From the NCBI GenBank assembly GCA_043739785.1, contig JAYUDN010000001.1, forward strand, positions 37,392-101,391: DNA of 64,000 bases, given 5' to 3'. Shown here piece after piece: positions 21,101 through 61,520 of the stretch. Each line of letters opens with the position of its first letter. Position 1 is the stretch's first letter. Both the position numbers and the translations under genes were made by a program. This DNA is from Candidatus Altimarinota bacterium (lineage in GTDB: Bacteria; Patescibacteriota; Gracilibacteria; BD1-5; UBA2023). Below the pieces are notes generated by a model, which did no database searches, was not told the DNA's origin, and saw only the letters and a program-made list of their open reading frames with translations.

Positions 21101-21969
21101 AATTCAATAGCTCCGGACAAGCTCTCAGCGGTTACTGGGAAATTGGTCGAGAGAGGTATCCCTGTATATGGAGAAAATGTATCCGGGATTCGAACCTGAA
21201 GTGCGGTCGTCATGATCTCACTCGTTAGTACCTGAGTCAGTCCATGAAGGAGGCCTGAAATATCTGCCACTTGCATCTGGTATCGTGTGGCTCACTGGAG
21301 CGGTGTCGTCGGGATGAATTCGAGGATACTCGTGTTGGTCCAGACACATCTTCCTTCGATATGAGGAGTGATGGTGAGCGGACAAGGAAGCGTATCTCGC
21401 TTATCGAGATTGGTGAGCGGTACCATCGGCGTATTGAAAACGACGGTGATATTTTGACTCAAGGTATCAAGTGATCCAGTCGGGAATATTTTCACGGCTT
21501 GAGCTCCTGGCGTTGCCACGAATGTCACGGTTTTATCCTTTCCGAGAGGAGTACCATCTGATTTCTGTACGGTCGAAGCGACGGTGAGATCGTAGGTTTC
21601 GCCCGTTTCGAGGGATTTCGAGAGCGTGTATGATATCGTCTTCGCATCAGCACCGACACTAACTTTCCCATCGACGTGAGGGGAAAGGGTGACGGTCTCG
21701 GGAGTGATCGATCCGGGAGTGACGCCCGAGTCGAGGGTCAGCGTCAGGACCTTCGTATTATACGGGATCTTCCCAGTATCCTCAGAAATCTCCTGACTCG
21801 CTCATGTCGGACCTTCCTTCCCTATGCCTCCGAGCGAGGGAAGTGATGGGGCATACATCCACCCTACGACTCCGACCATCCCGAGGAGAACGAGGAGTGA
21901 AATGATTTTCCAGTGGGCTCAGATACTTTCTAGAAATGATTTTTTCGGAGAGGGGGTTGCTTCTGTCAT
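15196..21969 (-). CDS. Alpha-2-macroglobulin family protein, membrane anchored, 2257 aa
   Basis: At least 11 track ORFs (15289.. to 21292..) all share one frame and join through TGAs. N-terminal TM segment WKIISLLVLLGMVGVVGW. Thioester-type motif YPYGCIEQ (CIEQ codons at 16921..16932). FKDTAFW and YQRYDGGFGYW. The C-terminus reads through TGA 15289 to TAG 15196. Confidence 0.8.
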
Positions 21970-27323: not shown

Positions 27324-27722
27324 ATGCCTACTATTTTTTCCTTTCTCATCTCGTGAGAAATCCCTTCGTTCAAGATCTATGAAGATGACTATGTTTTCGC
27401 ATTTCTCGATATCAGGCCACATACACCGGGTCATACGCTCATTGTTCCGAAGATCGAAGTAGATCACTTCTTCGAAGTTCCAGAACCGTACTACTCAGCG
27501 GTATTTCAGGCAGCACGTATGATCGCTCCTGCCCTCAAGAAAGCGATGAATGTGCCGAGAATCGGATCCCTCATCATGGGATTCGAAATCCCGCACTTTC
27601 ATCTCCACCTTATCCCCATGTCGGATCCGAAACATCTCGATCCGAATTCTGCTAAACCCGCTGATTTCGGAGAGCTCAAGGTCATCCAGGAAAGTATTAT
27701 CAAATGCTTGCAGGAAGGATAA
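27324..27722 (+). CDS. HIT (histidine triad) family protein
   Basis: IS(G)EIPSFKIYEDDYVFAFLDIRPHTPGHTLIVPK and the histidine triad HFHLHLIP. Confidence 0.85.
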
Positions 27723-27734
27723 AAAGTATATAAT

Positions 27735-28187
27735 GTATTAGTTTATTAGTTTATTAGTTTATTAGAGCATGAGAGCACTGGTGAACGGATGTACCGGACA
27801 AGAACTTTTTTACAGTTTTCGAAACTTCAAGAGTAGATTCTCGTTTTCTCGGGAATGACAGTAGTAAAATTCCCCTTTCAACCTGCTAACTCCCAGAATC
27901 TACTTTTCTCCGTCTCCGTCGCTTCCACCCCTCCTTTTTTACCCCCTAGTCCCCCTTGGAAGGGGGATTCGGAATCCCCTTATTCGTCGTCCAAAGCCTT
28001 TCCACTTTCCGACTTTCTAACCAGCCAATCAGCTTACCGACTCCTTTCCCCATCCCAGCTTACCTGCACCTAGCTATCTCCTCTTCCTCGTCTATTTCGT
28101 CTCTATAGTTTCTACCCTTCACTCCTTCCACCAACCAGCATACCAGCTAATCAGCCAATCTACCTCACTTCTAATCCCCCCTTTATT
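27735..28187. repeat. Intergenic mosaic repeat array A
   Basis: gtttatta x3 (27741..27764); GC hairpin accccctagtcccccttggaagggggattcggaatcccc (27941..27979); reverse-orientation word tracts (ccagccaatcagcttacc, tctaccc). Confidence 0.8.
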
Positions 28188-28952
28188 ATGTGGAATATCG
28201 CCCTCAATACCTTCCGTGAGATCATACGCAATAAGTTTTTCTCCTTGATTGTCTTCTTCGGAGTTGTATTTCTCCTGATTTCTCTCCTCCTGAGAACCCT
28301 GGCCCTTGGGGAAATCGAGCGAATGCTCTATGACTTCGGGCTTTCCTTCATCGAACTCACCGGGCTCTTCGTCGTCCTGTTTCTTGGAGGCGGGATGCTC
28401 TACCGAGAGATCGAAGGACGCACGATCTATCTCCTCCTTTCGAAACCGATTCGTCGGTCGTCGATCCTCATCGGGAAATTTTTCGGGTTTGCGATGATTC
28501 TCGGGCTCATCACCCTCTTTCTCTTCGCTATATTCTACGGACTCATCGTCGGGAACGGATTCACCTTCGACTCGATGGCATATATGGCGGTACTCGGGAT
28601 CTACCTGAAGCTTCTCTCGCTCCTCGCCGTGATTCTCTTTTTCTCGACGGTGGCGTCTCCGATCCTCTCGATGTTTTGTACGATAGCCACCTACTTTATC
28701 GGACACAATGCATACGCGATTCTTGACTTCTCCGCTCGAAAGGGGAGTGTATTTTTCGAATGGATGGGTCGTATTACGATCACCCTCTTTCCGAATCTCG
28801 AAGCCCTCAACCTGAAGAACTATGTTGCGACGGGGATACCATTTGATATAAGGTATTGGTCTCTCGGATATGCAACCGCAGTCCTCTATATCATCGTGAT
28901 CCTCTACCTCGGAGTGCTTCTCTTCAATAAGAAATCATTCGATACGGTGTAG
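28188..28952 (+). CDS. ABC-2 type transporter permease-like membrane protein
   Basis: 254 aa with six predicted TM helices and a NosY/ABC-2-like N-terminus MWNIALNTFREIIRNKFF. No cognate ATPase lies nearby. Confidence 0.55.
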   Translation: MWNIALNTFREIIRNKFFSLIVFFGVVFLLISLLLRTLALGEIERMLYDFGLSFIELTGLFVVLFLGGGMLYREIEGRTIYLLLSKPIRRSSILIGKFFGFAMILGLITLFLFAIFYGLIVGNGFTFDSMAYMAVLGIYLKLLSLLAVILFFSTVASPILSMFCTIATYFIGHNAYAILDFSARKGSVFFEWMGRITITLFPNLEALNLKNYVATGIPFDIRYWSLGYATAVLYIIVILYLGVLLFNKKSFDTV

Positions 28953-29795: not shown

Positions 29796-30314
29796 ATGGC
29801 TACCGAGTTTCAAAACGTTTATACAGATATATCACTTGATCTTTGTAGGAGTTATAGTGAATCAATGATACGAGATATTAATAGTCTTATAGAGGAAGTT
29901 TCAGTGATTGAAACATTTGTTAAATTTTCGAAACAAGAACCTTTACAATGGCTAACTGTACAGAGAGTATTTGAGATTCTCAATACCTCTAGATTTCAAA
30001 GTTTATTCAGTCTTTTGTCTCGGTGAACTGAATCTGAAATATACCAATTTCTCCCGAGTCTCGCAACAAGTATACAAGCAAGTAATGAAACCCTAGATGA
30101 GGATGTAAATAGAGGTTACCTTTTGAGAGAGATAGGTTATTTTCTTAAAGTACTAAATACCGCCACACTTATTTCCCTTAGAGAAAAGGTCGAGCAATGA
30201 AGCATTTCAGATGAAGACATGCGGATCTACCTCGAGTGATCTCGCCAAAGAACAGCAAGATTAAGAAAACAAGTGACATGGAAAGTAGATAAATATAGTT
30301 TTAAATTGAGTTAA
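29796..30314 (+). CDS. Hypothetical protein (172 aa)
   Basis: ATG ORF with three in-frame TGAs, followed by a strong terminator. Confidence 0.4.
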
Positions 30315-30347
30315 AAAAATCCCTTCCAAACTGGAAGGGATTTTTTT
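30314..30347. terminator. Bidirectional rho-independent terminator
   Basis: aaaaaatcccttcc-aaact-ggaagggatttttt. Confidence 0.7.
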
Positions 30348-30350
30348 GAA

Positions 30351-30455
30351 ATCCACTTGAATACTACTCTCACGACCTTCGACGGATCAACTGCAGTTCC
30401 TTCGATGGTCGTGAGAGAGATGTGGTAGCCAAGGAGGTTTTTGTTTGTGACTCAC
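30351..30455 (-). pseudogene. Diverged duplicate of the nusA 3' end
   Basis: The minus strand reads ..LLGYHISLTTIEGTAVDPSK.., compared with the nusA C-terminus ..LLGYRISLTTIEGTEVDPTK.. at 33207..33290. Roughly 80 percent nt identity by eye. Confidence 0.65.
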
Positions 30456-30574
30456 ATCAATCAAGGACAGAACGAAGAATTCCCGGTTATGAAACAACAG
30501 TCTATGAGGAGCGTGAGTTTGTGCGGATTCAGTACTACACAATGGCTACCAGAAATCCACCTGATTCAGAGAGA

Positions 30575-32908
30575 CTACCGATATTGGGAAGCAAGTTCTT
30601 CAAGGGCTTCTAGTTTTAGAAGAACATATGTTTTTTTATTCATTGTCGCTCGTTTCGTGTTTTCTTGTAGCCAAGCTTTTGAGCTATTTTTTAAAGTGGT
30701 TCTTTTGAGAACTTCGTATTTAAGTGGAGCATATTTTGACTCGATTAAGGCTCGGTATTCTTCACCAATAGCCTGGTAAGGTATCCCGGATATTGTTATA
30801 ATACCATTTTCGTTTATTTCCTCATCGATTAGAGAAACTTTTGTATTGATTTCAGCAAGTAACTCTCCAATCTTGCTTACACGTATGGCTCTTCATTTTA
30901 TTCCAGTTTGGGTGTTAAAAAATGGAATACTAAGTTTATCTTTCAGACCCGCTCTCATTGAATGATTCAGATATTGATTATTCTTTCCGTACGTATTTTC
31001 AATATAGTGAATATACCTATTGTCTAATACGTAATACCGTTCTCCTTTAAACGCAAATAATCCGTTTTCATCGATTGCATCAGCATGTACTAAAGACTTT
31101 ACACTCATTTTATCTATTAGAACACTTATAGAGCAAAACTGATACCTTTCTCATTCTTGGGACTGTCATACTTTTAGGTGGTCTTGAGATGCCTTTAGGT
31201 GGTTTTGTAGTCTTTGGAGTCACTCCAACTCAATACTAGCATATCATCTTCAGAGAAGTTCTATCAGTTCTCTGTCGAAGTCCGGATGAATTGCCTGAAA
31301 AGGTACTCATCATATAGTGCCAACACCATTTTTATTTATTTCTACAGATACAATATCTTCCATTACCTCATAACCAGAGAGTGTAAGATTATTAAGCATA
31401 ACCTCTCCTAGCTCATGCATCATCTCAAATGCATTCATTATACCACCTACTCGCTTACTACCATCTCAAGATACTTTAGTATTCGTAGAACCACTATTGG
31501 GGCTGGTTCATCTACTCTGTGCATCTGGTGGAGGAGTCAGTACATCCCATGACCGAGGAGCCATATAGAGTGTATTACTTGTATTTTTTGGAGGATATTT
31601 TTTTAGGTCTTGGGCACTCAAGGAACGCATAATTCGTCACATCAGCTGTATACTCTTGGCCGGAGACATAATCGCACATCACTGCAAATAACATCGAAGG
31701 GTCCTGACATCCCATCACTCTGCGACTTGTTGTACCGTTATAACCAGATCAATACTTCTATCCTGTATTCCTTTTTTTGCTTCGCGTGCGTCCATACCTT
31801 TTTTATACTTTCCATTTCCACTTGTCACGCGTACGGCTTTTACTCACTTTGATAGAGCAAGCTGAGTCACACTCTCAGCGTGTTCTATACTTCTACAAGC
31901 GTATATGCCAAGAAGATAATTATCTTGAGCCTTTTTCTCCTCAACGTACTCATCTATAAGCACTTCATCGAAAACCTTACCATCTTCATCAAAGTATCGA
32001 TATTTTTCATAGTCTTTTGTCGTGTCGTCATCATTGGGGCGGGTAGCATACGCATGACCGAGCAGCCGAGCCGTCGGAAGTATCAGAGTTCCATCATTGA
32101 CCGCGTCTTGAATTTTTCCCATATAAAATGGACGGGCGTATTCGAGTACATTTTTATTGGTAAGTCCAGGAGTAGCCGTAAAGTAAAGGTGAAGTTTTTT
32201 CTTGGCAATTTCTGAGATAATGGCTTCAGCTTTATCAATCTCAGATCCATCTTCAGACTCGGTGTCTTCCTCGGAAAGTGAAGTAAAGTGAGATTGAGTT
32301 TTTTCTCATAAACTCTTATGTCACTCATCAGATATGATACAATTTACCTGAGCAAAGATACTTTTAAGTACACCAAAATGAGACTTCGCAAGCTGATTGA
32401 ATCCATGGTAGGTAAGTATGATTACACCATTTGTATTCGATTGCATAAAATGGGGTATTCACTGAATCTGTTCTCATAGACTCCCATCACTTTCAGATGA
32501 TAGGCAAAATACCTCTCATTCGCTATACCCGACACCTGACTTCTCTTCGTTTCCTACGAGTTCATCTCGAGTATTACTTATAAGAGGAATATTGGGAACG
32601 AGAATGACATTGTTTCATCCGAGGGCTCTAAGTATTTTTCAGAAGAGATAGGTTTTTCCTACTCAGATGGCCAACTTCGCCAGTCCTGTACGATATCAAG
32701 ATTGTACTCAATCTATGATTCCACCAAGAGCATCATTTTGCTGTCCACGAAAAGAAATATCCTCATCACTCAGTTTCTGTAACTTCGCCACTTCTGATGG
32801 TATATCAGGCTGGGAAAGAATATCTGTAACTTTTCCACTATTGTCATTTGTGGGTAATCATAGGGCGGGGGGTGCATCAGGGCTGACCGATGGTTCTTCA
32901 GTATGCAT
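30575..32908 (-). CDS. SF2 (DEAD/DEAH-box, type III restriction res-like) helicase, 777 aa
   Basis: Motif I LAI(G)VGKTY, motif II IISDE(G)H, motif III TATPG, motif VI QLM(G)RIMR. More than 30 in-frame TGAs, so only 2 fragments (30893.., 31844..) appear in the standard-code track. Confidence 0.7.
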
Positions 32909-33156
32909 GGAAATAATTAAGTTACCTATATATAATAATATTATTATAACATATATATGTAAATATACAAATACTTCTAGTCACATCTAATTTCTACTTC
33001 TGCAGTTAGTCTACATTTTTGAAGTATCAAAAGGTTCTGTACTCATCTAAAGCCGGAGAATAATATCTTGTGACAAGCACAGAATAGGAGTCTATTAACT
33101 CTAAACAACATGAGTAAAATCAGTTTTCCTTGCCTTCAGTGATGAGTGTACATTAT

Positions 33157-33190
33157 AAAATCTCCTTCCAGATTAGAAGGGGATTTTTTT
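33157..33190 (-). terminator. Terminator downstream of nusA
   Basis: aaaatctccttc / gaaggggatttt hairpin with flanking A/T runs; homologous to the hairpin at 30314..30347. Confidence 0.55.
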
Positions 33191-33206
33191 GAAATCTATT
33201 TGTTTA

Positions 33207-34289
33207 CTACTCTCCTTCTTTCGTCGGATCCACTTCAGTTCCTTCGATGGTGGTGAGGGAGATGCGGTACCCGAGGAGGTCACCCGCGATGTTAATATTG
33301 GTCCCGCCTCGTCCAAGGACTTTCGCCTTTTCTTCATCCTTCACCGTTGCGCGGATGATATTATTCTCTTCATCGATTTCGATCTTTTCGACCGTTCCTG
33401 GGATGAGGGCTCGGCGAACCATTTCTTCTTGATTCGTCGTATAGTTGATGATATCGATCTTTTCCCCGAAGAGTTCATCGACGATATTGCGTACGCGCAT
33501 CCCCTTCGGTCCGATGAGACATCCAGCTGGGTCGACATCTTCCTCATCACTCGCGACGATGATCTTCGTCTTCACTCCCGGCATGCGGGCGATCGAGACA
33601 ATCTCGACGGTCCCTTCCTCGAGTTCTGGGGTATTCATCTCGAAGAGCTTCACGACGAGTTCCTTGTCTTTGCGAGAGAGGATGACGCGAGGTCCATTGA
33701 TTGGATCATTCTCTACCTTGCGTACATAGAGGTGCATACGCTGTCCAGGAGCGTATTTGTCTTTCGAGATCTGCTCACTCTTCGGGAGGATGACCTGGTT
33801 GCCATTGTATTCGAATACGACACGATTCTTCTCGACAAGCTCGACTCGGAGTGAGATAATCGTATCTTCCTTATCCTTGAAGAGGTGGTAGATTTTCTCT
33901 TTTTCAGTTTCTTGGATTTTCTGGACGATCACCTGTTTCGCGGCCTGCGCGGCGATACGACCGAATCCTTCCGAAGCGAGGACTTCGTCAGAGACGTCGA
34001 TTTCGACGGTATCTCCGATACTAAATCCGCTATCTTCACCGATATCTTCGAGGGATATTTCGACATCTGGATTTTCGACGGTTTCGACTACGGTTTTTTC
34101 GACCGATATTTCGAAGGTCCCAGCAGCAATATCCATATGGACACTGACATTGGCTTCTTTACTCGCGTAGTCTTTCTTATATGCGGTTTCGATCGCACGC
34201 TCGATGATGTCGAGGAGGCGTTCTTTCGGGATTTTCTTTTCAGCCGATATTTGGTTGATCGCGGCTTCGATCTTCTGGAGGTCAAACAT
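33207..34289 (-). CDS. nusA: Transcription termination/antitermination factor NusA
   Basis: N-terminal domain MFDLQKIEAAINQISAEKKIPKE, then S1 and two KH domains. The start is placed at Met59 of track ORF 33207..34463 because the upstream part is a translated repeat array. Confidence 0.85.
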   Translation of the reverse strand: MFDLQKIEAAINQISAEKKIPKERLLDIIERAIETAYKKDYASKEANVSVHMDIAAGTFEISVEKTVVETVENPDVEISLEDIGEDSGFSIGDTVEIDVSDEVLASEGFGRIAAQAAKQVIVQKIQETEKEKIYHLFKDKEDTIISLRVELVEKNRVVFEYNGNQVILPKSEQISKDKYAPGQRMHLYVRKVENDPINGPRVILSRKDKELVVKLFEMNTPELEEGTVEIVSIARMPGVKTKIIVASDEEDVDPAGCLIGPKGMRVRNIVDELFGEKIDIINYTTNQEEMVRRALIPGTVEKIEIDEENNIIRATVKDEEKAKVLGRGGTNINIAGDLLGYRISLTTIEGTEVDPTKEGE

Positions 34290-34560
34290 AGAGGGGGAGG
34301 GGTTAAGAATTAGCTGGTTAGCAGGTTTGTTGGGAGGTTGGGATGGGAGAAGGGTAGAGACGGTAGAAACGATCGAACGGTAGAGACGGGGGGCTGGTTT
34401 GCTGATTAGCTGGGAAGGAGAGAAGCTGGTTGGTGGGGAGAGGAGTTTCCATCCCCCTTCCAAGGGGGGCAGGGGGTAAAAAAAGAAGAGTAGAAAAGTA
34501 AAGAGAGAAACCTTATAGTACGGTCATTCCCGTGAAAACGGGAATCTAAATGAAACTTCA
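34290..34560. repeat. Intergenic mosaic repeat array B
   Basis: gctggt/ggtagag words, GC hairpin tccatcccccttccaaggggggcagggggt (34447..34480) and gtcattcccgtgaaaacgggaatc (34523..34546). Confidence 0.8.
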
Positions 34561-34657
34561 CGACGTTTCTGTTTTAAAAAAAGATTCGCCCGAGGGCCAA
34601 TCTTTTTACTATTCCTCCTGAGTATATCGATAGTTTATGAATTGTAAAATTTATTTT

Positions 34658-34685
34658 TTGACATTCATCATATTTTCTATAGAAT
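34658..34685 (+). promoter_or_regulatory. Sigma70-like promoter for rpmH-rnpA-yidC
   Basis: TTGACA (34658..34663), 16-nt spacer, TAGAAT (34680..34685), 25 nt upstream of the rpmH ATG. Confidence 0.5.
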
Positions 34686-34709
34686 TCGCGTACTTTTTAT
34701 GTACAACTT

Positions 34710-34952
34710 ATGATAGGAAAACTCAAGAAAAGAAAGCGACTCCGTGTTCATGGCTTTCTGAAGCGTATATCTACGGTGGATGGACAAAAGGTTCTCCGAT
34801 CTCGCCGCCGAAAGGGACGACATGTTCTCGCGGTCAGCTACCCAAACCGAGTGAAAAACATTCGAGGAAAGAGCCGACACCATATCGTAGCCGGAGGAAC
34901 AGCGCGGATTGTAACCTTCCCAGGTCTTACTGAGCGTTTTCGAGCTCGCTAG
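34710..34952 (+). CDS. rpmH: 50S ribosomal protein L34 with a C-terminal extension
   Basis: [37 protein letters not shown] core, followed by ~37 extra residues before TAG. Confidence 0.75.
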
Positions 34953-35032
34953 GCGTTGTATTCTGGACGTTTCATTAGTATCTATCTCGGCCTAGCAAGT
35001 CCATCCGATTTCCTAGGCCTTTTCTTTTCTCT

Positions 35033-35380
35033 ATGATCGCCTCACGATACCGACTATCCGAAAATGAAGTCAAAAAAGTACTCAAACAAAAGAAGCCATT
35101 TTTTTCACATACCTTCGTGGCCAATGTGATGAGAAATAACCTCGCAGTTTCGCGATTCGCTATCCTCCTCTCGGGGAAGCACGCGCCAGGAAGTGTGAAT
35201 CGAAACTACTGGAGGCGTCTCTACTATACTCGGTCAGAGCCCTATGTGGAGAGCCCAGGAGTCGATATCGTCCTCATTCCGAAGAAGTGAAAAATTTTTG
35301 ATAAAAATGACCAAACACATACAATAGAGGCCGTTCGAGATATCGATTACCTCCTCAGACAAATATTTCCAAGAAGATAG
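35033..35380 (+). CDS. rnpA: Ribonuclease P protein component
   Basis: Lies between rpmH and yidC. Basic 115-aa protein containing RLSENEVKKVLKQKKPFFS...FAILLSGK, with one in-frame TGA at 35288. Confidence 0.75.
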
Positions 35381-35485
35381 TATCCGATTTTGAAAGCAAA
35401 ATAGAGGAAGATACGTATTCCTTGTTTCCCGCATTATATTCCAAAGATACCTCAATACGCCAACCTCACCCTAAACCCCCTCCCC

Positions 35486-36685
35486 ATGGACTGGAATAAA
35501 TTTCTCAACATTCTCCTCTTTACGATCGCTTTTACCATCATCTTTCAGTGGGTCATGGGACCGAAAGCCAAGACCGATCTGGCGACGACCAATACGGTCT
35601 ACCTTCAGGTCAAGAAAAGTAGTACCGTCATCCCGAATATCCCGATTGTCGACATCGTCAATACGACGATGACCGGTACCATCATCGAAACCTGTCGAGA
35701 CGTGAAGATTTTCATCGACTCGAACCCACTCACGAACCTCGAGACCGAAGCACCAAAATTTTGTACTTCACTCACCGTGCCATCCGGTGGGCAGTCCCTT
35801 CTCCCGCTCGGTGCCCTGGCAAAAGCCTTCGCTGAGAGACCAGGAACCTATATCATCAGGCTTACGGTCGGAACTGAAGAAAAAATAGTGACGATCACTC
35901 ATTCATCTCCGAGTACGATACGATCACTCCTTTCCACGATCGTCTTCGAGCCGATCTACAATTTCTTCATCGCCCTCATCTCCTTCCTTCCGAGCCATAA
36001 CCTCGGGTGGGCGATTATCATTATCACCCTCATCATCCGCCTGATCCTTCTCTACCCACAGAACAAGATGCTCGTGAGTCAAAAGAAACTCCAAGTCATC
36101 CAGCCAAAGATCAAAGCGCTTCAAGAAAAACACAAGGGAGACCAGACCACCCTCGGGATGGAAATGATGGCGCTCTATAAGAAAGAGGGAGTGAATCCTA
36201 TGGGTTCTTGCCTTCCCCTTCTTATCCAGATGCCGATCCTGATCGGACTCTATTGGGTCGTCTCCGGGGTCAATGATCCAGCGAATTTCTACCACCTCTA
36301 CTCGTATTTCAAAGACTTCGATATTTCTACTGTCAATTCGCATTTCTACGGACTCAATCTAACTACAGTAGGTGGCTTGGTCGGGGGAATATTTGCCATA
36401 ATACTTGGTCTCATTCAATGGGTGCAGGCGAAACTATCGTTTACCTACAATCCTCCTGCGAAAAAAGAAAGCGCAAAGGTCATCGAAAAGACTGAAGATG
36501 GAGCCTACCAGGCCCCAGATCTCGCTATGGATCCCGCTATGATGCAGAAGATGATGCTTTATATGCTTCCCGTCATGATTGCGACTTCTTCCTTCTTTTT
36601 CCCACTCGGGGTCGGACTCTACTGGTTTATCGGGACACTTTTCGTCATCGCCCAACAGGCGTATGTGAACCATAAGGGGAAGTAG
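35486..36685 (+). CDS. yidC: Membrane protein insertase YidC
   Basis: 399 aa with LYPQNKMLVSQKKLQVIQPKIKALQEKHKGD...MALYKKEGVNPMGSCLPLLIQMPI. Confidence 0.9.
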   Translation: MDWNKFLNILLFTIAFTIIFQWVMGPKAKTDLATTNTVYLQVKKSSTVIPNIPIVDIVNTTMTGTIIETCRDVKIFIDSNPLTNLETEAPKFCTSLTVPSGGQSLLPLGALAKAFAERPGTYIIRLTVGTEEKIVTITHSSPSTIRSLLSTIVFEPIYNFFIALISFLPSHNLGWAIIIITLIIRLILLYPQNKMLVSQKKLQVIQPKIKALQEKHKGDQTTLGMEMMALYKKEGVNPMGSCLPLLIQMPILIGLYWVVSGVNDPANFYHLYSYFKDFDISTVNSHFYGLNLTTVGGLVGGIFAIILGLIQWVQAKLSFTYNPPAKKESAKVIEKTEDGAYQAPDLAMDPAMMQKMMLYMLPVMIATSSFFFPLGVGLYWFIGTLFVIAQQAYVNHKGK

Positions 36686-37480
36686 AAAGTTAGAATAGGA
36701 GGTAGCTGGTAAGCTGGGATGGGAGAAAAAGGGAGAAGAGTGGAAAAGGAGAAAGCTGATTCGCTGGTAAGAAAGTTGGAAAGGAAAAATAGTAGGATAA
36801 CTCGAGAGGAGGAATGGGTAAGATGATGCAAGGGTAAAAGAAAAAAAACGAGTTTTTGTCATTCCGACCGAAACGACCATAGGAAGTGAAGTGGAGGAAT
36901 CCCTTTTCACATTAAGAAGATAAAATCATACTGAAACCAAGGGATCCCTCGATTCCGGCTATCTCCTCCACTCGGGATGACAACGGTGAGAGAAGAGTAG
37001 AAGAGCGTAAAAGTAGAAGAGTAGAAGAGCGAATGGGGGTCTCTATCCCCCTTCCAAGGGGGACAAGGGGGTAGGGTATAAGGAAGTTTGGTGTCATTCC
37101 GACCGAAGTGACAGAGGGGAAAGCGCCACGAGAATTCCATTGTTACTTTGTCATTCCCGTGAAAACGGGAATCCAGCAAATAAGAAACTGGATCCCCGCA
37201 TGCGCGAGGATGACAACCAAAAGAAGTAGAAAAGAGGAAAGGGAGAGAACTTAGAAACGATGGGAAGGTGGATGAGAGTTTTTTGAATCCCCCTTCCAAG
37301 AGGGACTAAGGGGAGTAGGGTATAAGGAAGTAAAAAAGGAGAAGAGTAGAAAAGTAGAATTGGATAAAGTAAGAACAGCAAGAGCCAAACACGGGAAAAC
37401 CCGAGCACTCCAACTCTCGGAGAGATGATCACATTGAAAAGAGAGAAGAAAGTCATATAATACGCCACTCATACACATCT
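36686..37480. repeat. Intergenic mosaic repeat array C (about 0.8 kb, largest in the window)
   Basis: Modules: M3 36858..36903, M5 36941..36982, GC hairpins 37031..37086 and 37280..37330, M3 37093..37138, M1-M2 composite 37150..37215, plus gtagaag and gctggt word tracts. Confidence 0.85.
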
Positions 37481-42645: not shown

Positions 42646-43275
42646 ATGAAATGTATCATCTGACTCGGAAATCCAGGGAAAAACTATCAACATACTCGAC
42701 ACAATGTCGGGTTTATGATGATAGACCAGATTGCTGAAAGGTATGGCGATGGAGTATGGAAGGATTCGAAGTTCCAGGGAGTGGTTTCGAGTTGAGAGTT
42801 TCCTGTTTTCAGTTGAAAAAAACTTTTATTGGATTCTACAGGTGAATGAATGGAAAGAGCTGTGAATGGACAACCAACAGCTCAAAACTCAAAACCCAAA
42901 ACCGAAAACTGTCTCCTCCTGAAGCCTCTTACCTTTATGAACCTCTCAGGGCAGTCGGTCGCGAGCCTGGTACACTTCTACAAACTGGATCCGAAGACCG
43001 ATATTCTCGTCATCGCTGATGATATCGATATGGCATTCGGAAAGGTTCGATACCGGGCAAAGGGGAGTTCCGGAGGGCAAAATGGACTCAAGTCCATCAT
43101 CGAACATCTCGGGACGGACGAATTCGCTCGGATCAAAGTCGGGATTGGTCGGGATGATCGCTTCGCCGTGAGTGACTGGGTTCTCTCGAAGTTCACGAGT
43201 GAAGAAATGAAAATACTCAAAGAAGTCGTATTTCTGGAGGTTCAGTCAAAAATAGATGAATGGATGGAGGGGTAA
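42646..43275 (+). CDS. pth: Peptidyl-tRNA hydrolase with an internal insertion of about 32 codons
   Basis: MKCII(G)[39 protein letters not shown] and VGIGR. The N-terminal part is only recovered by reading TGAs at 42661, 42793, 42814 and 42847. Confidence 0.85.
42784..42910 (+). repeat. Heptad-array-bounded segment inside pth
   Basis: Left: gtttcga|gttgaga|gtttcct|gttttca|gttgaaa (42784..42818). Right: ctcaaaa|ctcaaaa|cccaaaa|ccgaaaa (42881..42908). The two arrays are in inverted sense. Confidence 0.7.
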
Positions 43276-43838
43276 TGAAAAGTGAAGAATGAATAACGAA
43301 GAATAGAGGGGAAATTACGAAATACGAATGAAGAATTAGTAGCAAAAAATGAAGAATATGAGCCCTTCGTCATTCTGAGGTCGCCCCTTTGCGAAGCATT
43401 GGAAGTACCCTTGGGGTACGAAGAATCCAGATTCCGAAAGACCGAACTTCTTCAGGACTATCCTGATCGGTGTACGGGAGTGAAAAATTGTTGTCATTCC
43501 CGTGAAAACGGGAATCCACTTCTCTTTACCCCCTTAGTCCCCCTTGGAAGGGGGATTCAAAATCCTCATTCGCTTTTCTTTTGTTGTCATCTCGAGTGGA
43601 GGCGATAGCCGGAATCGAGAGATCCCTTTGCTTCAGTATGATTTCAATCCCTTGAAGTGGAATAAGGGATTCCTCCGCTTCACTTCCAGCGGTCGTTTCG
43701 GTCGGAATGACAAAAAAATCAGTTCTACTCGTCTACCATCTTCTACCACACTCTACCATCTTCTACCACACTCTACCATCGTCTACCCAACCAGCACACT
43801 AGCAAACCAGCCAACCAGTTATTTCCTAACCTTCCCCT
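43276..43838. repeat. Intergenic mosaic repeat array D
   Basis: M6 43367..43429, M1 43493..43517, GC hairpin 43527..43565, M5 (reverse) 43586..43625, M3 (reverse) 43666..43711, and CTACC phased every 10 nt at 43733..43783. Confidence 0.85.
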
Positions 43839-44681
43839 ATGCGTCTTGATCTCGCCGTATCCTCGAAACTCAGTATTTCTCGCAACCGTGCCCAGCGTCT
43901 TATCGATGAGGGACTCGTTTCTGTCGACGGGAAAGTCTGTCGAAAACCGTCCCATGAAGTGGAAGGGGAGATTATCGAAGTATCCGAGGGTTCCAGTAAT
44001 CACTGGGTTGCTCGGTCAGCAGGGAAACTGGATGGTTTCTTGGATGAGTTGCAGGTTGAAGGTTGCAGGTTACAGGATGAAAAATGAGAAAATGTATGAG
44101 AGAAAAACTCCATTCTTGATCAATCCAGCTCGTTTTTATGAACCAAGATAGATGAAGTTCTAGTTTCAAAACCTTCAACTTGCAACTTGCAACTTGCAAC
44201 TGCCACCTGCCTCGACATCGGCTCTTCTACCGGAGGATTTACTCAGATCCTCCTCGAGCGGGGAGCGAGGCGAGTGGTTGCGGTCGATGTCGGGACGGAT
44301 CAGCTTCACCTTAGTCTGCGAGGCGATCCGCATATCGAGCTCTATGAAAATACGGATATTCGCACCTTTTCGAAAATAGAAAAATTCGACATTATCACCA
44401 TCGATGTTTCCTTTATCTCCCTTCGGGAAATCGTTCCCGAGCTACAGAGATTCATGAAAGAGGATACCGATATATTCCTTCTTTTTAAGCCTCAGTTTGA
44501 AGTCGGACGAGCGAACCTCCGTAAGACGGGAGTCCCGAAAAGTGAGGGAATCATAGATTTATCCCTTCATGATTTCCAGATATTTCTCGAACATGCCGGA
44601 TTCACCATAATGAAAGTATCGAAAGCTCAGGTCGTCGGGGAAGCTGGTAATCAGGAGTATATGATGTGGGTGAGGCGGTAG
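43839..44681 (+). CDS. tlyA: TlyA-family rRNA 2'-O-methyltransferase (S4 plus FtsJ domains) with an internal insertion
   Basis: The S4 domain is MRLDLAVSSKLSISRNRAQRLIDEGLVSVDGK. The SAM motif is CLDIGSSTGGFTQILLERGA..V.AVDVG. 43839..44087 and 44187..44681 are in frame. Confidence 0.8.
44048..44204 (+). repeat. Heptad-array-bounded segment inside tlyA
   Basis: Left: gttgcag|gttgaag|gttgcag|gttacag (44048..44075). Right: cttcaac|ttgcaac|ttgcaac|ttgcaac (44173..44200). The arrays are in inverted sense and bracket a ~95-nt core. Confidence 0.7.
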
Positions 44682-45030
44682 GGAGGTAGAAACGAGGGAA
44701 AGATAGAGACGGAAAAAGGCCGGTAAGCTGGTTTGCTGGTTAGAGGGTTGGAAAATTGGAAAGTGGATGAGTGGAAAAGGTAGAATAAATGAGCTTTTGT
44801 CATCCCGACCGAAATGGAACAAGTTGGAGTGTAATAGAGAAACCCCATTTCTATTTTGTCATTCCCGTGAAAACGGGAATCCAGCAAACAAGAATCTGGA
44901 TCCCCGCATACGCGAGGATGACAAACAAAGGAAGTGGCAGAAGTCTAGAAAGATAGAAAAAATTAGAATATATAACAAGAAAAAACTGAAAAATTTGCCA
45001 AATAAAAATAAATAGAGTATGATTAGTAGG
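44682..45030. repeat. Intergenic mosaic repeat array E
   Basis: ggtagaa/gctggt words, an M3 variant at 44799..44845 and the M1-M2 composite at 44858..44923. Confidence 0.8.
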
Positions 45031-45049: not shown

Positions 45050-45865
45050 ATGAAAATAAAAATCTTCTTATTTTTTCTTGCTTTGTTCAGTATGTCCACT
45101 CTATTTGGCGCTACTCCGAATTGTGGGAGTAACTACTGTAATAGAATCGACAATCTTCCTAAAAACCTTACCCCTCTTACTCCAGCTGGAGAGGCTTATA
45201 TTAGAAGTCTAAAAGACGTAGTAAAACCAGATTGATCGATAGATGCCCAGGCATTACAAATTGCCCTACAAGCAAATGATAAAAGTATTATCGTCGACAA
45301 TAAATTCTGAGACAATACGATTACTGCTGCAAATGAAGCTGGAAAAACCTGAATTATAAACGGTACACTTAAGCCCCTTCCTAGCTGAGATACGAGTCCT
45401 CTTCCGTCCTCATGAGGGCCAATTACATTAGATCCAATTACCTGATCACCAGTTTCAGGATGAGGAGGAAATACTCCCAAAAAAGACTCGATGGTTATTG
45501 TTACAGAAATAATACCTGGAGCTGACTGTAGATGTGATGTAGATTGAGATCCAAATTATGCTCAAAAGTGAGCTTGTACTTCAAAAACTCCTGTACCTGA
45601 AAGAAAGTATCGTTGTTATATCCCACCTGGCTTTTCTAGCTTTCAGATGATTCTTGCCGAAATTATTCGCTATGTAGTATACACATCGATGCTTCTTGGA
45701 GTCCTCGCTCTTACGGTGATGGGAATCCTCTGGTCGATCGCTGGAGCTGATGAGCCGAAAGTGAAGGCTATGAAGGGATGGTTTATCAATATCATCATCG
45801 GACTCACGATACTCTTTTTCTTCCGAATCATCCTCTCCTTCCTCGCACCTTGGATATTCCAGTAG
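45050..45865 (+). CDS. Secreted Cys-containing protein with a C-terminal T4SS-pilin-like domain
   Basis: Signal peptide MKIKIFLFFLALFSMSTLFG. About ten in-frame TGAs. The C-terminus TM-AGADEPKVKAMKG-TM (track ORF 45647..45865) has the same motif layout as the triple pilin at 4778..5746. Confidence 0.6.
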
Positions 45866-46290
45866 GAGAAAGCTGGTTAGCTGGTTCGCTGGTAGGAGAG
45901 GAAGCCGGTAAGCTGGTTTGCAGATTAGCAGGTTGGTCGGTCGGGTAGAAAGGATAGAGATACTTCATATGGATAATTATAGAAGACAAAAAGAGTGAAA
46001 TTCCCCCTTGATAAAGGGGGTGAGGGGGATTTTGTTTCCCCTTTCTTACTTCCTAATCTGTCTATCTTGTCTATGCATTTCTCTTTCACCTTCACCTGCC
46101 TATATTGTGCTGTGTTCATACTCTCTCTACTCACCCCTCCCTCCTACCGACTTCCACCCTTCAACTTTCTAAAGAGCAAACCAGCCCTCCCCGTTTCTAC
46201 CATTTCTACCGACTCTATAGATACAGAGTCCCGAGTATTTGCCTTTTCACCCGATTTCACTATATTTCTCCTGACTAAGAACTAACTTTC
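45866..46290. repeat. Intergenic mosaic repeat array F
   Basis: 8-nt periodic words agctggtt|agctggtt|cgctggta ... gccggtaa|gctggttt|gcagatta|gcaggttg|gtcggtcg|ggtagaaa (45871..45959), and a GC hairpin at 45998..46034. Confidence 0.8.
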
Positions 46291-46296: not shown

Positions 46297-47067
46297 ATGT
46301 GACGATGACCGACGGTTCAAGCCCAGAAAGAAGCCTCTGCTAAAATCAAATCCAAAGTGAACGCTATCCACGCCAAGCTCATCTCCCTCGCGGCCGAACG
46401 GGGAGCGGATCCGAAGGAAAATAATGCCCTTGCGGAAGTCATCACCAATGCGAAAAAGGCAGGAGTGACCATCGATGTCATCGACCGAGCCATCCGACGT
46501 GTGGCGGGGATTGATACTGGAGAGAAGAAAGTGGAAGAGATATTTTACGAAGGGTACCTTCCGGGAGGTGTCGCTATTATCGTACGAACTCTCACCGATA
46601 ACCGTAATCGCACCGCTCCGAGCATGCGTCATATCTTCTCGGCGTATGGTGGCAATCTCGGCGAGTCAGGATCCGTCTCGAACTACCTCTATGACTACAA
46701 AGGGCAGCTCACCCTCACGACGCCTCCTGATTTCGAAGCCTTCGAACTCGCGCTTCTCGAGACCGAAGCTGAGAACTATGAGAATATGGGCGAGACGACC
46801 AGCATCTGGACCGACCGGACCCACCTTGCGAGCGTGAAGAAGCCCCTCGAATGAGCCTGATACACCTTCGAATCAACCGGATTTACCTACATACCGAAGA
46901 ACTATAGCGAAGTGACTGATTTTGATACAGCCCTCCAGGTCTACTCCTTCCTCGAAGCCTGTGGAGAGGATGAAGACATCGAATCCGTCTGGAACAATGC
47001 GGATATCTCCGATACCCTCTGGCAGCAGGTGCGAGAAAAGGTTGAAGCGAGTCGGTTTCGGACGTAG
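46297..47067 (+). CDS. yebC: YebC/PmpR family DNA-binding transcriptional regulator
   Basis: M(G)R(G)PTVQAQKEASAKIKSK...DPKENNAL...AKKAGVTIDVIDRAI. The C-terminal part joins through TGAs at 46852 and 46858. Confidence 0.8.
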
Positions 47068-50306: not shown

Positions 50307-51284
50307 ATGTATATCCTTGCAATTCCGACATCTCATACTATCGATACGGAGCCACTGATTTATTTCTGTCCCGAGAACTTCGAGTCGCAGATAGGACTCG
50401 GTTCGCTAGTCGAAATCCCCGTTCGTACGTCGATGACCTATGCGGTCATTTCGGATATTGATGTGGAAATACCAGTCGGGCTTGAGATTACTGATATCCG
50501 CTCGATCGTCCGAGTGGTCTGTACGACGCCACTATTGGGCGAGGATACCCTTCGCGTGATTCCAGAAATTGCTGAACTCTCTCTCGTCCCGATTCATAAG
50601 GTCCTCTCCCTCTTCCTTCCGAAGTCGACATTGACAGCTCTCGAGAAGAAGAATTTTGAGGTGTTGGATAGTTTGCCGGTAAGCTGGGATGCTGGTTTGC
50701 AGGTTGGGGAATTGGAAGTCAAATCTGAGAAAAGAAAACTTGAGAACTCAAAACTCAAAACTCAAAACTCAAAACTCGAACGTTCCATCGAATTCTTTCA
50801 TTCGACTCGAGTGACCCCGGCTGTCATCGAGACCTATATAACCCCCGATACGCTCGTTATCCTGCCTGACGATATCCTCCTTCGTTCGTGTGAACAGTAT
50901 TTTACGAGTCAGTCTTCCTTGAGGGAAGAGCATTCTCACGGAAAACAAGCATTATTTACCTATGGAGATACGACGATCACTCGAAAGATCCGGAGCTGGG
51001 TCGATGTGAGAAATCATAAATTTTCGATTTGTTTTTGAACTCGACGACTTCTTTACTATAATCTCTCGAAGTATCGACAGATCCTCTATATAGAAGATGG
51101 ATTCGCTCGTGAGTACTTCCAGCACCCGCTCCGATACAAGCATATCGATATTCTCAGAGCCCTTTCGAAGCACTCTTCTCTCGATATCCGTATCCTGACG
51201 AGCATCCCAGCGCTCGAAACCCTCTCAAAACTCCGAAACTTTTCCATCCACAATATCACATGAAAATCGACCCTCAACGAATAA
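50307..51284 (+). CDS. Degenerate, truncated PriA-like (primosomal protein N') protein
   Basis: The N-terminal 3'-DNA-binding-like domain is LIYFCPENF...GSLVEIPVRT. STRVTPAV occupies the Walker A position and IEDGF the DEEH position. The protein ends after 325 aa. Confidence 0.5.
50675..50781 (+). repeat. Word/heptad repeat block inside the PriA-like gene
   Basis: gccggtaagctgggatgctggtttgcaggttggggaattggaag (the same words as the intergenic arrays), then ctcaaaa x4 plus ctcgaac (50747..50781). Confidence 0.7.
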
Positions 51285-54892: not shown

Positions 54893-55520
54893 GAAGCAGG
54901 TAGATCTTGGTAGATAACAGGTAGAAACGGCAGTAGGTAGAAAGCGAGGAAAATAAGATGAGAAAAGGCTGGTATGCCGTTAGGCTGGTAAGCTGGTATG
55001 GGAGAAACGAATGGAAAAAGGAATAGTAGAGAGATGATAGCAGATAGAATATGGGAAAATGGTAGAAACGGTAGAAGAGGAGAAAAGTAGAAAAGGGAGG
55101 AACGATAGGATTGGTAAAAAATGGATGGGATTTTTTGAATCCCCCTTTCAAGGGCGACTAAGAGGGTAACGGTTCGGAAAGACGATGGGGAGGTAGAAAT
55201 GATGGAATGGTAGAAAAGGTAGAAGCGAAAGAAGTATTTTTTGCGTTATTCCGACCTTAGTGGAATAAAGTAAAATCAAGAGAAGGAATCGTATCCTCAT
55301 TTCGTCATTCCCGTGAAAACGGGAATCCAGCAAATAAGGAACTGGATCCCCGCATACGCGAGGATGACAAAGAGACGAAGGAATGCCTCTCCCGAGTCCT
55401 ATGGATCGGCATGACACAGTATTGTCATTCCGACCGAAACGACCAGAGGAAGTGAAGTGGAGAAATCCCTTTTATTCTCATCCGTCTTGTTCGATAGTTT
55501 TTATCGATTTTCCTTCTATT
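54893..55520. repeat. Intergenic mosaic repeat array G
   Basis: GGTAG at 54888, 54899, 54909, 54920 and 54936; GC hairpin 55141..55182; M1-M2 composite 55304..55369; M3 55424..55468. Confidence 0.85.
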
Positions 55521-55522
55521 GT

Positions 55523-56020
55523 TACCTCTCATTTTATTCCTTCCCATCATGAACCTTCTTTGACGAACGAAAGCCCTTTGGCGAGGAGATACGGAGCTAT
55601 GCTCTCTTCGGTATGTATCTTTCGGATAGCCTTTTCGAGAAGTAACGTATTCATAGCATGCACCCCGAGTATTTGGATCAGTCCATGGTTGTAGGCGGAT
55701 CTCAGGGCATGTGACACCTCAGTACTGACGAGATTCATCCCGATGAGGTCACGGTCGTTGCGATCCTGTCGACAAAAGGCGATATCGAAGAGCGAACAGG
55801 CAGTCATATCCACTCATTTTGTTACCGAGAAGGCATTTTTCTCAGCATCGTAGTATTCAAGCGTTTCATAGTGAGTACGCAGGCACGCCAATTCTTCTTT
55901 GGTGTTTGCCGAGGACTGGAGTACTTCTCACTCGAACACTCGGTAACATTTCCCACGACTTGATTCCTGGAAGACTGGATAGCAAAATCCATCTACTCAT
56001 ACCTCGTAAAATATCCCACG
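55523..56020 (-). CDS. Hypothetical protein (165 aa, GTG start)
   Basis: Track ORF 55547..55813 extended in both directions through TGAs at 55529, 55547, 55814, 55928 and 55997. It directly follows the FtsB-like gene. Confidence 0.35.
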
Positions 56021-56021
56021 A

Positions 56022-56447
56022 TTAGTTATCTGATGCATCGGTAGTAGTGCGTATTTTAAAGAGGAGGTACATCCATTTTTCTCGGTTTGACATCCCCTTC
56101 ATCGGAGAGGATTCTTGTTTTTCGGCTTTACTGATACGGTCATTCACATTGAGCGCTTCGTTGCTCGCGACGTCCTCTTCAGTGACGATATTGATTACTT
56201 TTTCTCCCGGGAGTTTCTTATTGAGACTCGATTTCGCTATACGCGACATATAGGCTTCGGTATTGATGTAGGTTAGGTAGGTCTTCTTGGCTTCGATACT
56301 GTTTTCGGACTTGATATTGTTCGCTTCGACATTTCGCATATGGGTGCTGATCTGGAGATCCTGATACTTATAAAATCCGATGAGGTAGAGCTCATAGATA
56401 ATCAAGGACACAAGTCCGATCAGGATGTAGCGAAATCGAGGATTCAT
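56022..56447 (-). CDS. Septum formation initiator (FtsB/DivIC-like) protein
   Basis: N-terminal TM segment, coiled coil, and YMSRIAKSSLNKKLPGEKVINI resembling the family C-terminal motif. Confidence 0.55.
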   Translation of the reverse strand: MNPRFRYILIGLVSLIIYELYLIGFYKYQDLQISTHMRNVEANNIKSENSIEAKKTYLTYINTEAYMSRIAKSSLNKKLPGEKVINIVTEEDVASNEALNVNDRISKAEKQESSPMKGMSNREKWMYLLFKIRTTTDASDN

Positions 56448-56700
56448 AGGGGACGAGAGTTCGAGAGTATAAGAGTTTTACAGTTTAAGAGGAGAAGGGC
56501 GCGGAAGCTTGGAAGCTAGTTAGCCGGTAAGCTGGGACGGTAGAAATGATGGGATGGAGGCGGTAGAAACGGCAGAAACGATTTCTGTGTCATTCCGACC
56601 GAAGCGGAGGAATCTCTTTTCTCGTTTTGTCATTCCCTTGAAAACGGGAAGCCAGAAAACGATGGGATGGTAGAGGAGCTAGACATGGGAAAATGTAGGC
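56448..56700. repeat. Intergenic mosaic repeat array H
   Basis: gctggt/ggtagaa words, M3 at 56589..56614 and an M1 variant at 56629..56655. Confidence 0.8.
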
Positions 56701-56762
56701 ATTCTACCGAAAGAGCATGGTTATTTGCTTTTTCATAGGCTTTTGTGATACAATAATGATAA

Positions 56763-61494: not shown

Positions 61495-61520
61495 AAAATC
61501 CCGCGTGAGCGGGATTTTTC
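61494..61520 (+). terminator. Rho-independent terminator after the R-M gene
   Basis: aaaaatcccgc-gtga-gcgggattttt. Confidence 0.7.

Follow-up and report, generated by a model that had tools for sequence, protein, structure and literature searches.

What are the short units of C and G runs that recur in the intergenic spacers of a 64,000-nt stretch of Candidatus Altimarinota bacterium (assembly GCA_043739785.1, contig JAYUDN010000001.1, positions 37,392–101,391; hereafter the window, i.e., the whole of the DNA analysed), and how do they relate to the one cassette in that stretch that carries a DUF559 endonuclease gene? A first-pass annotation had described them as solo copies of the hairpin end of this cassette, at eight intergenic loci and in both orientations, and had regarded them as a non-autonomous family resembling miniature inverted-repeat transposable elements (MITEs). 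From our analyses, each of the eight loci is probably a lone, orphan end that derives from a family of DUF559 cassettes and is of the class II intrastrand-triplex (BoxC/PIT/TM) type, and the expansion of this family probably predates the divergence of the sister species.

All eight loci indeed carry the motif. A search with the 16-mer CCCCCTTCCAAGGGGG, allowing up to two mismatches, matched nine window loci (12553, 12975, 27951, 34453, 37047, 37289, 43539, 55141, and 58076) vs. 0.00 expected from 100 dinucleotide shuffles, and a tenth copy, 46005, is a loop variant (CCCCCTTGATAAAGGGGGTGAGGGGG). A covariance model, R1, was built from an alignment (A2) of 15 Gracilibacteria copies from the window, the sister species and the cassette ends of a distant relative, and was run on both strands of the window with filters off. 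It gave ten full-length matches of 31–55 bits, corresponding to the eight solo copies and the two cassette ends; as ten window sequences trained the model, their scores are not independent evidence, and the informative part is the absence of any further copy. The next-best full-length candidate reached 11 bits (E 0.26) and there was no eleventh copy in the 64 kb, so that the earlier list stands as complete. The motif copies and the parts of the resident cassette are as follows:

12352–13485, plus strand: host open reading frame (ORF) of the cassette, a class I S-adenosylmethionine methyltransferase with TGA read as Gly; single frame of 377 amino acids.
12543–12590, plus strand: left inverted end of the cassette; R1 38.4 bits; CCCCCCGTCGAAGGGGGGCAGGGGGATA; in-frame translation NPPSKGGRGI.
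12628–12948, plus strand: DUF559 (Vsr-like PD-(D/E)XK) nuclease domain, amino acids 93–199 of the 377-residue ORF.
12953–13000, minus strand: right inverted end of the cassette; R1 45.4 bits; minus strand CCCCCCTTCCAAGGGGGGGAGGGGGGTAA, with a TTCCAA loop; translation YPPPPLGRGV.
27929–27976, minus strand: solo repeat 27951; R1 53 bits; core at 27942–27966, whose minus strand reads CCCCCTTCCAAGGGGGACTAGGGGG.
34443–34490, plus strand: solo repeat 34453; R1 46.9 bits; core at 34453–34476, CCCCCTTCCAAGGGGGGCAGGGGG.
37037–37084, plus strand: solo repeat 37047; R1 50.7 bits; core at 37047–37071, CCCCCTTCCAAGGGGGACAAGGGGG.
37279–37326, plus strand: solo repeat 37289; R1 47.6 bits; core at 37289–37313, with two substitutions (CAAGAGGG, AAGGGGAG).
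43517–43564, minus strand: solo repeat 43539; R1 55.5 bits; core at 43529–43554.
45994–46041, plus strand: solo repeat 46005; R1 31.2 bits; loop variant.
55131–55178, plus strand: solo repeat 55141; R1 44.4 bits; degenerate, CCCCCTTTCAAGGGCGACTAAGAGGG; in the convergent spacer 54893–55471.
58066–58113, plus strand: solo repeat 58076; R1 49.8 bits; CCCCCTTCTAAGGGGGATTGGGGGG.

Once aligned and oriented, the copies share the consensus nTTTTnAAT-CCCCC-TTCCAA-GGGGG-ACnA-GGGGG-TAA, with flanks and loops conserved, so their similarity reaches beyond the G/C runs. Solo copies and cassette ends belong to the same sequence family, as had been claimed: a TTCCAA loop is found in six of the eight solo copies and in the right end of the resident cassette, and this variant of the loop is uncommon, with 53 loci in all of the metagenome collection. 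The loop of copy 46005 resembles the TGATAA loops of cassettes in other phyla. Copy 37289 is a direct copy placed 242 nt after 37047, and the 3′ flank TAGGGTATAAGGAAGT is common to both. All eight solo copies are intergenic, six on the plus and two on the minus strand, in co-directional and divergent spacers. Two regions were reproduced at 100% identity in independent assemblies: 34262–37176, with copies 34453 and 37047, in SRR23617247 of the same organism, and 55340–64000, with copy 58076, in SRR23617215 as well as, up to 59757, in SRR23617247.

The first-pass annotation saw the motif as a hairpin, which it does contain; the full unit, of about 30–60 nt, has three blocks and obeys the code of an intrastrand triplex. 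A pyrimidine run is followed by a 4-nt loop, a complementary purine run, a 2–3-nt loop and a second purine run, with the core (T)C5(T), 4-nt loop, (A)G5(A), 2–3-nt loop, (A)G5(T). Taking as a class II triplex unit a pyrimidine block, its complementary purine block and a third block of purines or G/T, with stems of 6 nt or more and loops of 1–6 nt, the arrangement TCCCCCT, 4-nt loop, AGGGGGA, 2–3-nt loop, AGGGGGT is present in six of the eight solo copies; both cassette ends have the same three blocks with slight variation, and copies 55141 and 37289 are degraded, the hairpin of the former being weakened to −2.1 kcal/mol. Relatives with interrupted runs reveal how the third block relates to the second: across all the loci fetched it was a mirror image in 30 cases and a direct copy in one, with seven ties (e.g., AGAGGGG...GGGGAGA, GGGAGA...AGAGGG, and AGGGGAGG...AGGAGGGG). 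When aligned on the G positions, an internal A in the purine block faced A in 31 cases, T in 11, G in two and C in one, that is, A or T in 42 of 45; these cases come from 19 different stems, and 25 of 34 have a second loop of 3 nt. Such a mirror pattern is exactly what a pyrimidine-purine-purine intrastrand triplex would require, with G·G-C, A·A-T and T·A-T triads and a third strand that runs antiparallel to the purine one. The repeats that arise by templated DNA synthesis, in contrast, are direct or inverted and not mirror-like.

Three other roles for the G runs were considered. In minimum-energy folds the C run pairs with either G run; however, a second G run serving as an alternative hairpin arm predicts a direct copy, which the mirror pattern rejects by 30 to 1. 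A G-quadruplex is ruled out because each end has just two G runs on a strand. Whichever way the unit is read, no T run follows the hairpin, and published work on PIT elements describes neither promoter nor terminator activity; a terminator is thus unlikely.

By their predicted fold, the solo copies are triplex repeats of the BoxC/PIT/TM type, a kind of element already published. The published pattern is 5′-CCCTCNCCC-N3-6-GGGNGAGGG-N3-GGGNGAGGG (Holder et al., 2015, PMC4666352; after Bachellier et al. in the 1990s and Hoyne, Maher et al., 2000), and motifs of this class fold into class II triplexes in vitro, as seen by circular dichroism and nuclear magnetic resonance; they are always intergenic, have no strand bias, are abundant in E. 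coli, Enterobacter and cyanobacteria, and are tied to rearranged loci (PMC4666352). Our motif agrees with them in its three one-strand blocks in the order pyrimidine-purine-purine, in a first loop of 3–6 nt and a second of about 3 nt, in the class II code and in being intergenic, without strand bias, highly conserved and located in indel-rich regions. Likewise, the second-loop sequences TTA and CCG occur also in relatives, and cyanobacteria, which are rich in the published repeats, provided several of the DUF559 loci surveyed below. It differs from the TMECO consensus in its stems, of 5–7 nt with unbroken C5–6/G5–6 runs vs. the 9-nt CCCTCNCCC, and is thus a different sequence family of the same class; it also differs in density (eight copies per 64 kb in the window vs. 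23 TMECO per 4.6 Mb in E. coli K-12) and in its host, a Gracilibacteria using genetic code 25. Additionally, BoxC/PIT/TM repeats were published without an associated gene, and the authors never found transposases, integrases or mobile elements near them (PMC4666352); in our data, by contrast, inverted copies of the motif make up the ends of DUF559 cassettes.

The link with DUF559 extends well beyond the window. We surveyed 80 DUF559 loci from species-representative genomes of many phyla, including Poribacteria, Nitrospirales, Desulfobacterales, Omnitrophota, Patescibacteria, cyanobacteria, Alpha- and Gammaproteobacteria, Oscillospiraceae and Planctomycetes. When the 220 nt upstream of the gene were aligned with the reverse complement of the 220 nt downstream, at 76 loci, ends consisting of a C run, a loop and two G runs (for example, ACCCCCCTGATAAGGGGGGCAAGGGGGGTTA) were the best match at the majority of them by our own count. 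R1, trained on Gracilibacteria only, gave 156 matches in the 80 loci plus three comparison loci; 94 of these were within 150 nt of the DUF559 ORF vs. 56 distal ones, that is, 3.7 vs. 0.14 per kb, a 26-fold enrichment, and the canonical inverted orientation prevailed by 67 to 27 among the matches near the gene. In total, 52 of the 80 loci have a match; the kinship of solo copies and cassette ends that had been proposed from the window alone is thus found at DUF559 genes of other phyla, and the sequence comparisons support a general association of motif and gene across phyla.

One such association is that in E. coli K-12, where a BoxC/TMECO copy, CCCCTCGCCCCTCTGGGGAGAGGGTTAGGGTGAGGGG, one of the 23 published TMECO copies, lies ~170 nt past the stop codon of ycjD, a gene annotated as DUF559, and adjoins a partial duplicate of the 3′ end of ycjD (L144, 5041–5410; NC_000913.3, about 1351040–1351409). 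We estimate the chance that one of 23 copies in 4.6 Mb falls so near ycjD at roughly 0.002. Of 5426 E. coli genomes, 3346 have the whole fabI-ycjD-sapF segment. In E. coli MCJCHV-1, which lacks ycjD, homology ends ~40 nt before TMECO and is followed by TetR/RND genes; E. coli strains without ycjD are uninformative on excision because other genes occupy the place and there is no clean empty site.

A cassette may stand alone, form part of a tandem array, or be nested in frame within a host gene. At least 10 of the 80 are nested in larger ORFs, and at seven loci from several phyla (L007, L008, L013, L020, L024, L036, and L042; about 2960–3400 in most) the cassette sits at the same junction of a DNA-methyltransferase-like gene, before ...VELTDFSVFYSQDS; other nested hosts are MiaB, an HsdS-like gene and a type IIG restriction-modification gene (L034, L050, and L059). 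Cassette hosts are mostly methyltransferases or components of restriction-modification systems, reminiscent of the way in which Vsr is paired with Dcm. Conserved host proteins of this sort, in their usual form without an insertion, carry no motif (there were no empty alleles among the retrieved loci), and nested cassettes carry both ends; the ends therefore belong to the inserted unit and arrived with the gene. Read in frame, the C/G runs encode Pro/Gly-rich peptides, and on inspection the left end is open in two of three frames and the right end in all three, which would allow an in-frame insertion to behave as a tolerated domain insertion.

Ends and cassettes are also found multiplied. In a MiaB-nested cassette of Gracilibacteria, the right end is repeated four times as a 42-nt, frame-preserving unit, and tandem arrays of ends exist at some of the 53 metagenome loci; judging from such arrangements, the ends are evidently prone to local amplification. 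True doublets, i.e., two inverted ends ~20 nt apart, were seen at four metagenome loci (L091, L107, L118, and L132); non-autonomous forms thus exist, as doublets, tandem arrays of ends and partial duplications of ends, and no doublet is present in the window. A chromosome from Poribacteria (OY764061.1; L026, 2700–5830) contains four near-identical DUF559 cassettes in tandem, and in addition the left end, together with the first ~60 nt of the gene, and the right end are each duplicated in tandem. In a locus from Microcystaceae (L051, about 2560–3130), ~90 nt of host flank are directly duplicated on both sides of the cassette, which could represent either a long duplication of the target or a copy of the end of the target gene that the cassette brought with it.

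The cassette of the window is of the nested kind. Genes in the window were called with code 25 and flanking genes named via Pfam, since TGA is a sense codon across the window (e.g., 12352–13485 and 15196–21969) and falls at conserved Gly positions (YL-TGA-IDNS in the methyltransferase, EL-TGA-LIIELDG in DUF559), as in the code 25 of Gracilibacteria; the closest YidC homologues are from Candidatus Gracilibacteria. ORFs called with table 11 are fragmented and misleading, and reading through TGA results in long ORFs, the longest of 2266 codons between TAA/TAG stops. The DUF559 domain (Pfam PF04480, E 1.1e-27, 106 of 109 model positions) retains all the invariant columns of alignment A1, including D59, E70, D72 and H76, and its closest solved structure is 3HRL (E 2.5e-16), an endonuclease-like protein with no assigned function. 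The cassette lies in frame between methyltransferase motif I (VLDVGCGNG) and the YLGID strand. There are no splicing junction residues and no intron at the cassette, with junction peptides ...GLNGEQENPPSKGG... and ...GRGVSHPYTGNGKEAL...; in the window, Rfam at the gathering threshold reported two tRNAs only, and no intron. Among the 11 window ORFs scanned with Pfam, none belongs to a transposase family.

The first-pass annotation was right in that only one copy carries the endonuclease ORF: the window holds a single DUF559 gene, and a code-25 tblastn search detected no DUF559 relics beside any solo copy even at an E-value of 50, its one marginal match being at 31783–31923 (E 0.004). The idea that this is an autonomous, mobile copy did not hold as well. 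The nested gene is orthologous and syntenic in the distantly related Gracilibacteria isolate GFS_11518 (L003, 2707–3909), and is found also in the Logan contig L002, with conserved orthologous ends in both (CCCCCCTTTGAAGGGGGGAAGGGGGGTA and its inverse); amino acid identity between the window and L003 is 67% in the DUF559 core vs. 56% in each part of the methyltransferase. This syntenic orthologue, and a nuclease better conserved than its host, show the insertion to be old and inherited vertically, with purifying selection on the DUF559 domain; the cassette looks resident and not like an element that jumped recently. The comparison also suggests selection at the DNA level on the C/G runs of the cassette ends. 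Third positions of the Pro/Gly codons within these runs remain C or G in the window and in L003.

The history of the solo copies could be followed in a sister species (GCA_043769645.1, designated L084) with 91% amino acid identity in YidC, about 82% nucleotide identity and conserved gene order, in which six of the sites are comparable:

Copy 27951: intact in the window and in L084, the 29-nt core being identical amid about 80% identical flanks.
Copy 43539: intact in the window and in L084 (11826–11851), with surrounding modules that differ by indels.
Copy 37289: two substitutions in the window; intact in L084 (6256–6281).
Copy 34453: intact in the window; decayed to CTTCCTTCCAAGGCGGGTAGGTCGG in L084.
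Copy 37047: present in the window, in a ~520–557-nt block (36696–37252) of several repeat modules; block absent from L084.
Copy 46005: present in the window; absent from L084, where the spacer is filled by other repeat modules.

For two of the four shared copies, one species retains an intact version and the other a decayed or decaying one, and L084 shows no copy that is absent from the window. More distant Gracilibacteria (YidC 61% identical; L087–L090) show neither the motif nor spacer synteny. The comparison thus places the expansion of the family before the split from the sister species, after which copies would mostly have persisted or decayed, with some turnover.

We can envisage how orphan ends of a DUF559 cassette family might arise. 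A Watson-Crick hairpin would form first, and the third purine strand would then fold back on it by reverse-Hoogsteen pairing. The DUF559 nuclease could recognise or nick the folded end, as association, orientation and conservation suggest, and its action may promote the copying of cassettes and ends, as the REP-associated tyrosine transposase (RAYT) does for repetitive extragenic palindromes (REPs). Likewise, the stable structure might itself provoke slippage or template switching, leading to extra ends. At present the copies would mostly persist and decay in place, with a slow turnover within repeat-mosaic spacers.

Several observations weigh against this reading. The runs of the window copies are unbroken, and the mirror rule, which cannot be tested on them, rests on the relatives. 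Predicted hairpin energies (−2 to −11 kcal/mol; ViennaRNA, which has no triplex terms) have z values from +0.65 to −2 against shuffles, i.e., they are no better than these. DUF559 has no known biochemical activity, and its binding or cutting of the motif is hypothetical. The 80 surveyed loci represent the nearest relatives of a single DUF559 subfamily and lack phylogenetic independence, and 28 of them lack an R1 match near the gene. Furthermore, the motif can persist without a neighbouring gene, as occurs in 52 of the 53 metagenome loci with the exact TTCCAA loop (DUF559 is nearby in one). The age of the resident insertion counts in the same direction. Finally, the copies are not at identical positions in all relatives, since two of the six comparable ones are specific to the window lineage, yet four are at orthologous sites in L084, and between both genomes there is neither a clean pair of filled and empty sites nor a target-site duplication; none can be defined because the window-only copies lie in larger indels. 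Transposition is accordingly putative, and the evidence for recent MITE-like mobility in this genome is weak.

Among the alternatives, the most probable, although we think it unlikely, is that the repeats are independent structural elements, neutral or with a role in the host (hot spots of recombination or replication pausing, or protein-binding sites), spread by recombination or gene conversion; the cassette would then insert preferentially at or near such structures, or DUF559 would be a nuclease of the host, retained close to the triplex or hairpin DNA on which it acts as a processing enzyme. Most copies have no DUF559 nearby, several window copies are at orthologous sites, two of them with perfect cores amid ~80% identical flanks, and the variable region of E. 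coli begins about 40 nt from TMECO; published work, likewise, found no mobility genes and no promoter or terminator activity, only genomic instability. Nevertheless, cassettes nested in MiaB and methyltransferases bring both ends with them, which makes the ends part of the insert and not of the target, and an orientation around the gene that is mainly inverted (67 vs. 27) does not favour independence. Moreover, other orthologous copies decay freely, arguing against a general host function.

It is improbable that a full DUF559 cassette once occupied each of these spacers and was deleted or eroded down to the solo copy, without mobilisation in trans. Solo copies are old, and partial cassettes and end duplications do adjoin full cassettes elsewhere; however, coding remnants are lacking beside the solo copies (as described above), there is one end per site and its partner is never present, and copies 37047 and 37289 look like a local duplication. 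Recombination between end hairpins, besides, would leave a two-block hairpin instead of the three-block unit observed. As for a chance product of G/C runs in GC-patchy spacers, folding energies no better than those of shuffles count for little against zero expected vs. nine observed loci, the alignment and the covariance scan, the conservation of flanks and loops, the retention of the same sites in the sister species and a mirror rule of 30 to 1 in relatives, and this explanation has a negligible probability.

Having found orphan ends of a cassette family the most probable explanation, we compared it with known repeat systems. It resembles REPs, their paired forms (REPINs) and RAYT in combining many orphan structured repeats with one or a few genes that have the repeat on both sides in inverted orientation, such a gene being often single-copy and vertically inherited, and in having singlets, doublets and clusters in mosaic spacers. 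Here, in contrast, the flanked gene is the Vsr-like PD-(D/E)XK nuclease DUF559 and not a Y1 HUH transposase, and the motif is a three-block triplex unit instead of a simple imperfect palindrome with a GTAG head. As in MITEs, derivatives without a gene share their ends with a gene-bearing element (12543–12590 and 12953–13000 in the window; 52 of 80 DUF559 loci), and outnumber it 8 to 1 in the window, which agrees with the first-pass annotation; in the metagenome scan, 52 of 53 loci are of the gene-less kind. Conversely, the solo copies in the window are unpaired, each a single end without a partner or a target-site duplication, 37047 and 37289 are direct and not inverted, and the putative parent encodes no known transposase.

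In-frame residence has parallels as well. The Rickettsia palindromic elements that Ogata et al. are said to have described in 2000 are reportedly gene-less and 100–150 bp long, whereas here a whole nuclease domain is inserted, with ends that code for Pro and Gly. Inteins and the EDxHD Vsr-like homing endonucleases (I-Bth0305I; PMC3239194) share with the cassettes a Vsr-like fold, insertion in frame and the occupation of the same site of a conserved host in several phyla (the seven methyltransferase loci); they differ in that the cassettes have no intron or intein framework and no junction splicing motifs, possess inverted structured ends, and have most copies of these in intergenic positions.

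The spacers that hold the solo copies are 277 to about 1200 nt long, and those inspected closely are mosaics of other short repeat modules. Long spacers built of several short repeat modules are known from the neisserial NIMEs/dRS3. Two MITE-like families with TGTCATTCC...GGRATGACA ends form much of the long spacers: one of ~130 nt (36853–36984, 43583–43716, inverted, and 55422–55473) and a shorter one of ~75–90 nt (37137–37227, 44845–44935, and 55291–55381), which holds an ATTCCC-N8-GGGAAT hairpin that we take to resemble dRS3 of Neisseria. This likeness concerns the neighbouring modules and not the triplex motif, and the organism and the set of modules differ. Arrays with a period of ~8 nt (GGTAGAAA and GCTGGTTA types) fill the same spacers in the window genome and in the sister species (34324–34440, 36700–36790, 36990–37030, 44670–44790, 45864–45950, 54900–55230, 56518–56580, and 57972–58001). 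The genes next to the solo copies are:

Copy 27951: HIT-family gene, 27324–27722, and ABC-2 permease gene, 28188–28952, both from Pfam.
Copy 34453: divergent nusA, 33207–34289, minus strand; the copy is 164 nt upstream of nusA.
Copy 37047: yidC, 35486–36685; the copy is 362 nt downstream of yidC.
Copy 43539: pth, 42646–43275, and a tlyA-like gene, 43839–44681; the copy adjoins an ATTCCC-N8-GGGAAT hairpin module.
Copy 46005: a gene at 45050–45865 and yebC, 46297–47067.
Copy 58076: 108 nt downstream of 56763–57968 and 146 nt upstream of a Type ISP restriction-modification gene, 58246–61494.

Some of these genes themselves contain repeat-like segments. The Type ISP gene has short in-frame Pro/Gly-rich segments (SPHGGVSEGRGGG, TPSLRATPQGGEF, and TPSPSRGE; e.g., 61050–61093), which resemble small G/C hairpin repeats, of other variants, in translated form (only 8 bits with R1 at 61050–61093), and pth has an extra segment of ~30 amino acids with respect to the Pfam model, at 42840–42900, overlapping the dispersed repeat CTCAAAACTCAAAACCCAAA (also at 50727–50780). 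Elsewhere in the window, a ~2.8-kb segment at 30314–33280, between direct repeats of ~125 nt (30314–30438 and 33157–33280), carries a ResIII-helicase-like ORF on the minus strand (30575–32908) that is unusually rich in TGA (25 codons); it is present in the window only, and the sister species has at this site one copy of the repeat and no insert. A perfect 59-nt direct repeat (568–626 and 690–748) includes the 5′ part of a tRNA-Leu (726–810), so that the start of this tRNA is partly duplicated.

BoxC/PIT/TM repeats have been known since the 1990s as triplex-forming sequences that mark unstable loci, with their origin and spread left open (PMC4666352), and DUF559, of which YcjD from E. coli is a member, is a very large family listed without an assigned function. 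We found no paper linking the two, subscription-only literature being outside our search. In a study of predicted inversion targets, the 'DUF559 domain-containing protein' was 14-fold enriched, without discussion (PMC9881135); this fits genes with flanking inverted repeats, and a link between motif and DUF559 would explain it. Tentatively, and with less confidence than in our reading of the window, DUF559 of the YcjD type might be the missing partner gene of BoxC/PIT/TM, the two forming a so far unrecognised, pan-bacterial class of selfish cassettes with triplex ends recognised by the nuclease and Pro/Gly linkers that permit in-frame, splicing-free residence in host proteins, notably methyltransferases and restriction-modification enzymes; the orphan ends of the window would be their non-autonomous progeny. 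For annotation, these units explain many spurious Pro/Gly-rich mini-ORFs and the odd N- or C-terminal tails of annotated DUF559 proteins. More generally, the data point to a selfish gene that resides inside host proteins without splicing. The reproducible physical link gives DUF559 and BoxC/PIT/TM a single testable hypothesis, that the nuclease acts on triplex-forming ends, with E. coli, its ycjD and the adjacent BoxC as a ready model, and makes DUF559 a candidate partner gene for a repeat family of unexplained origin.

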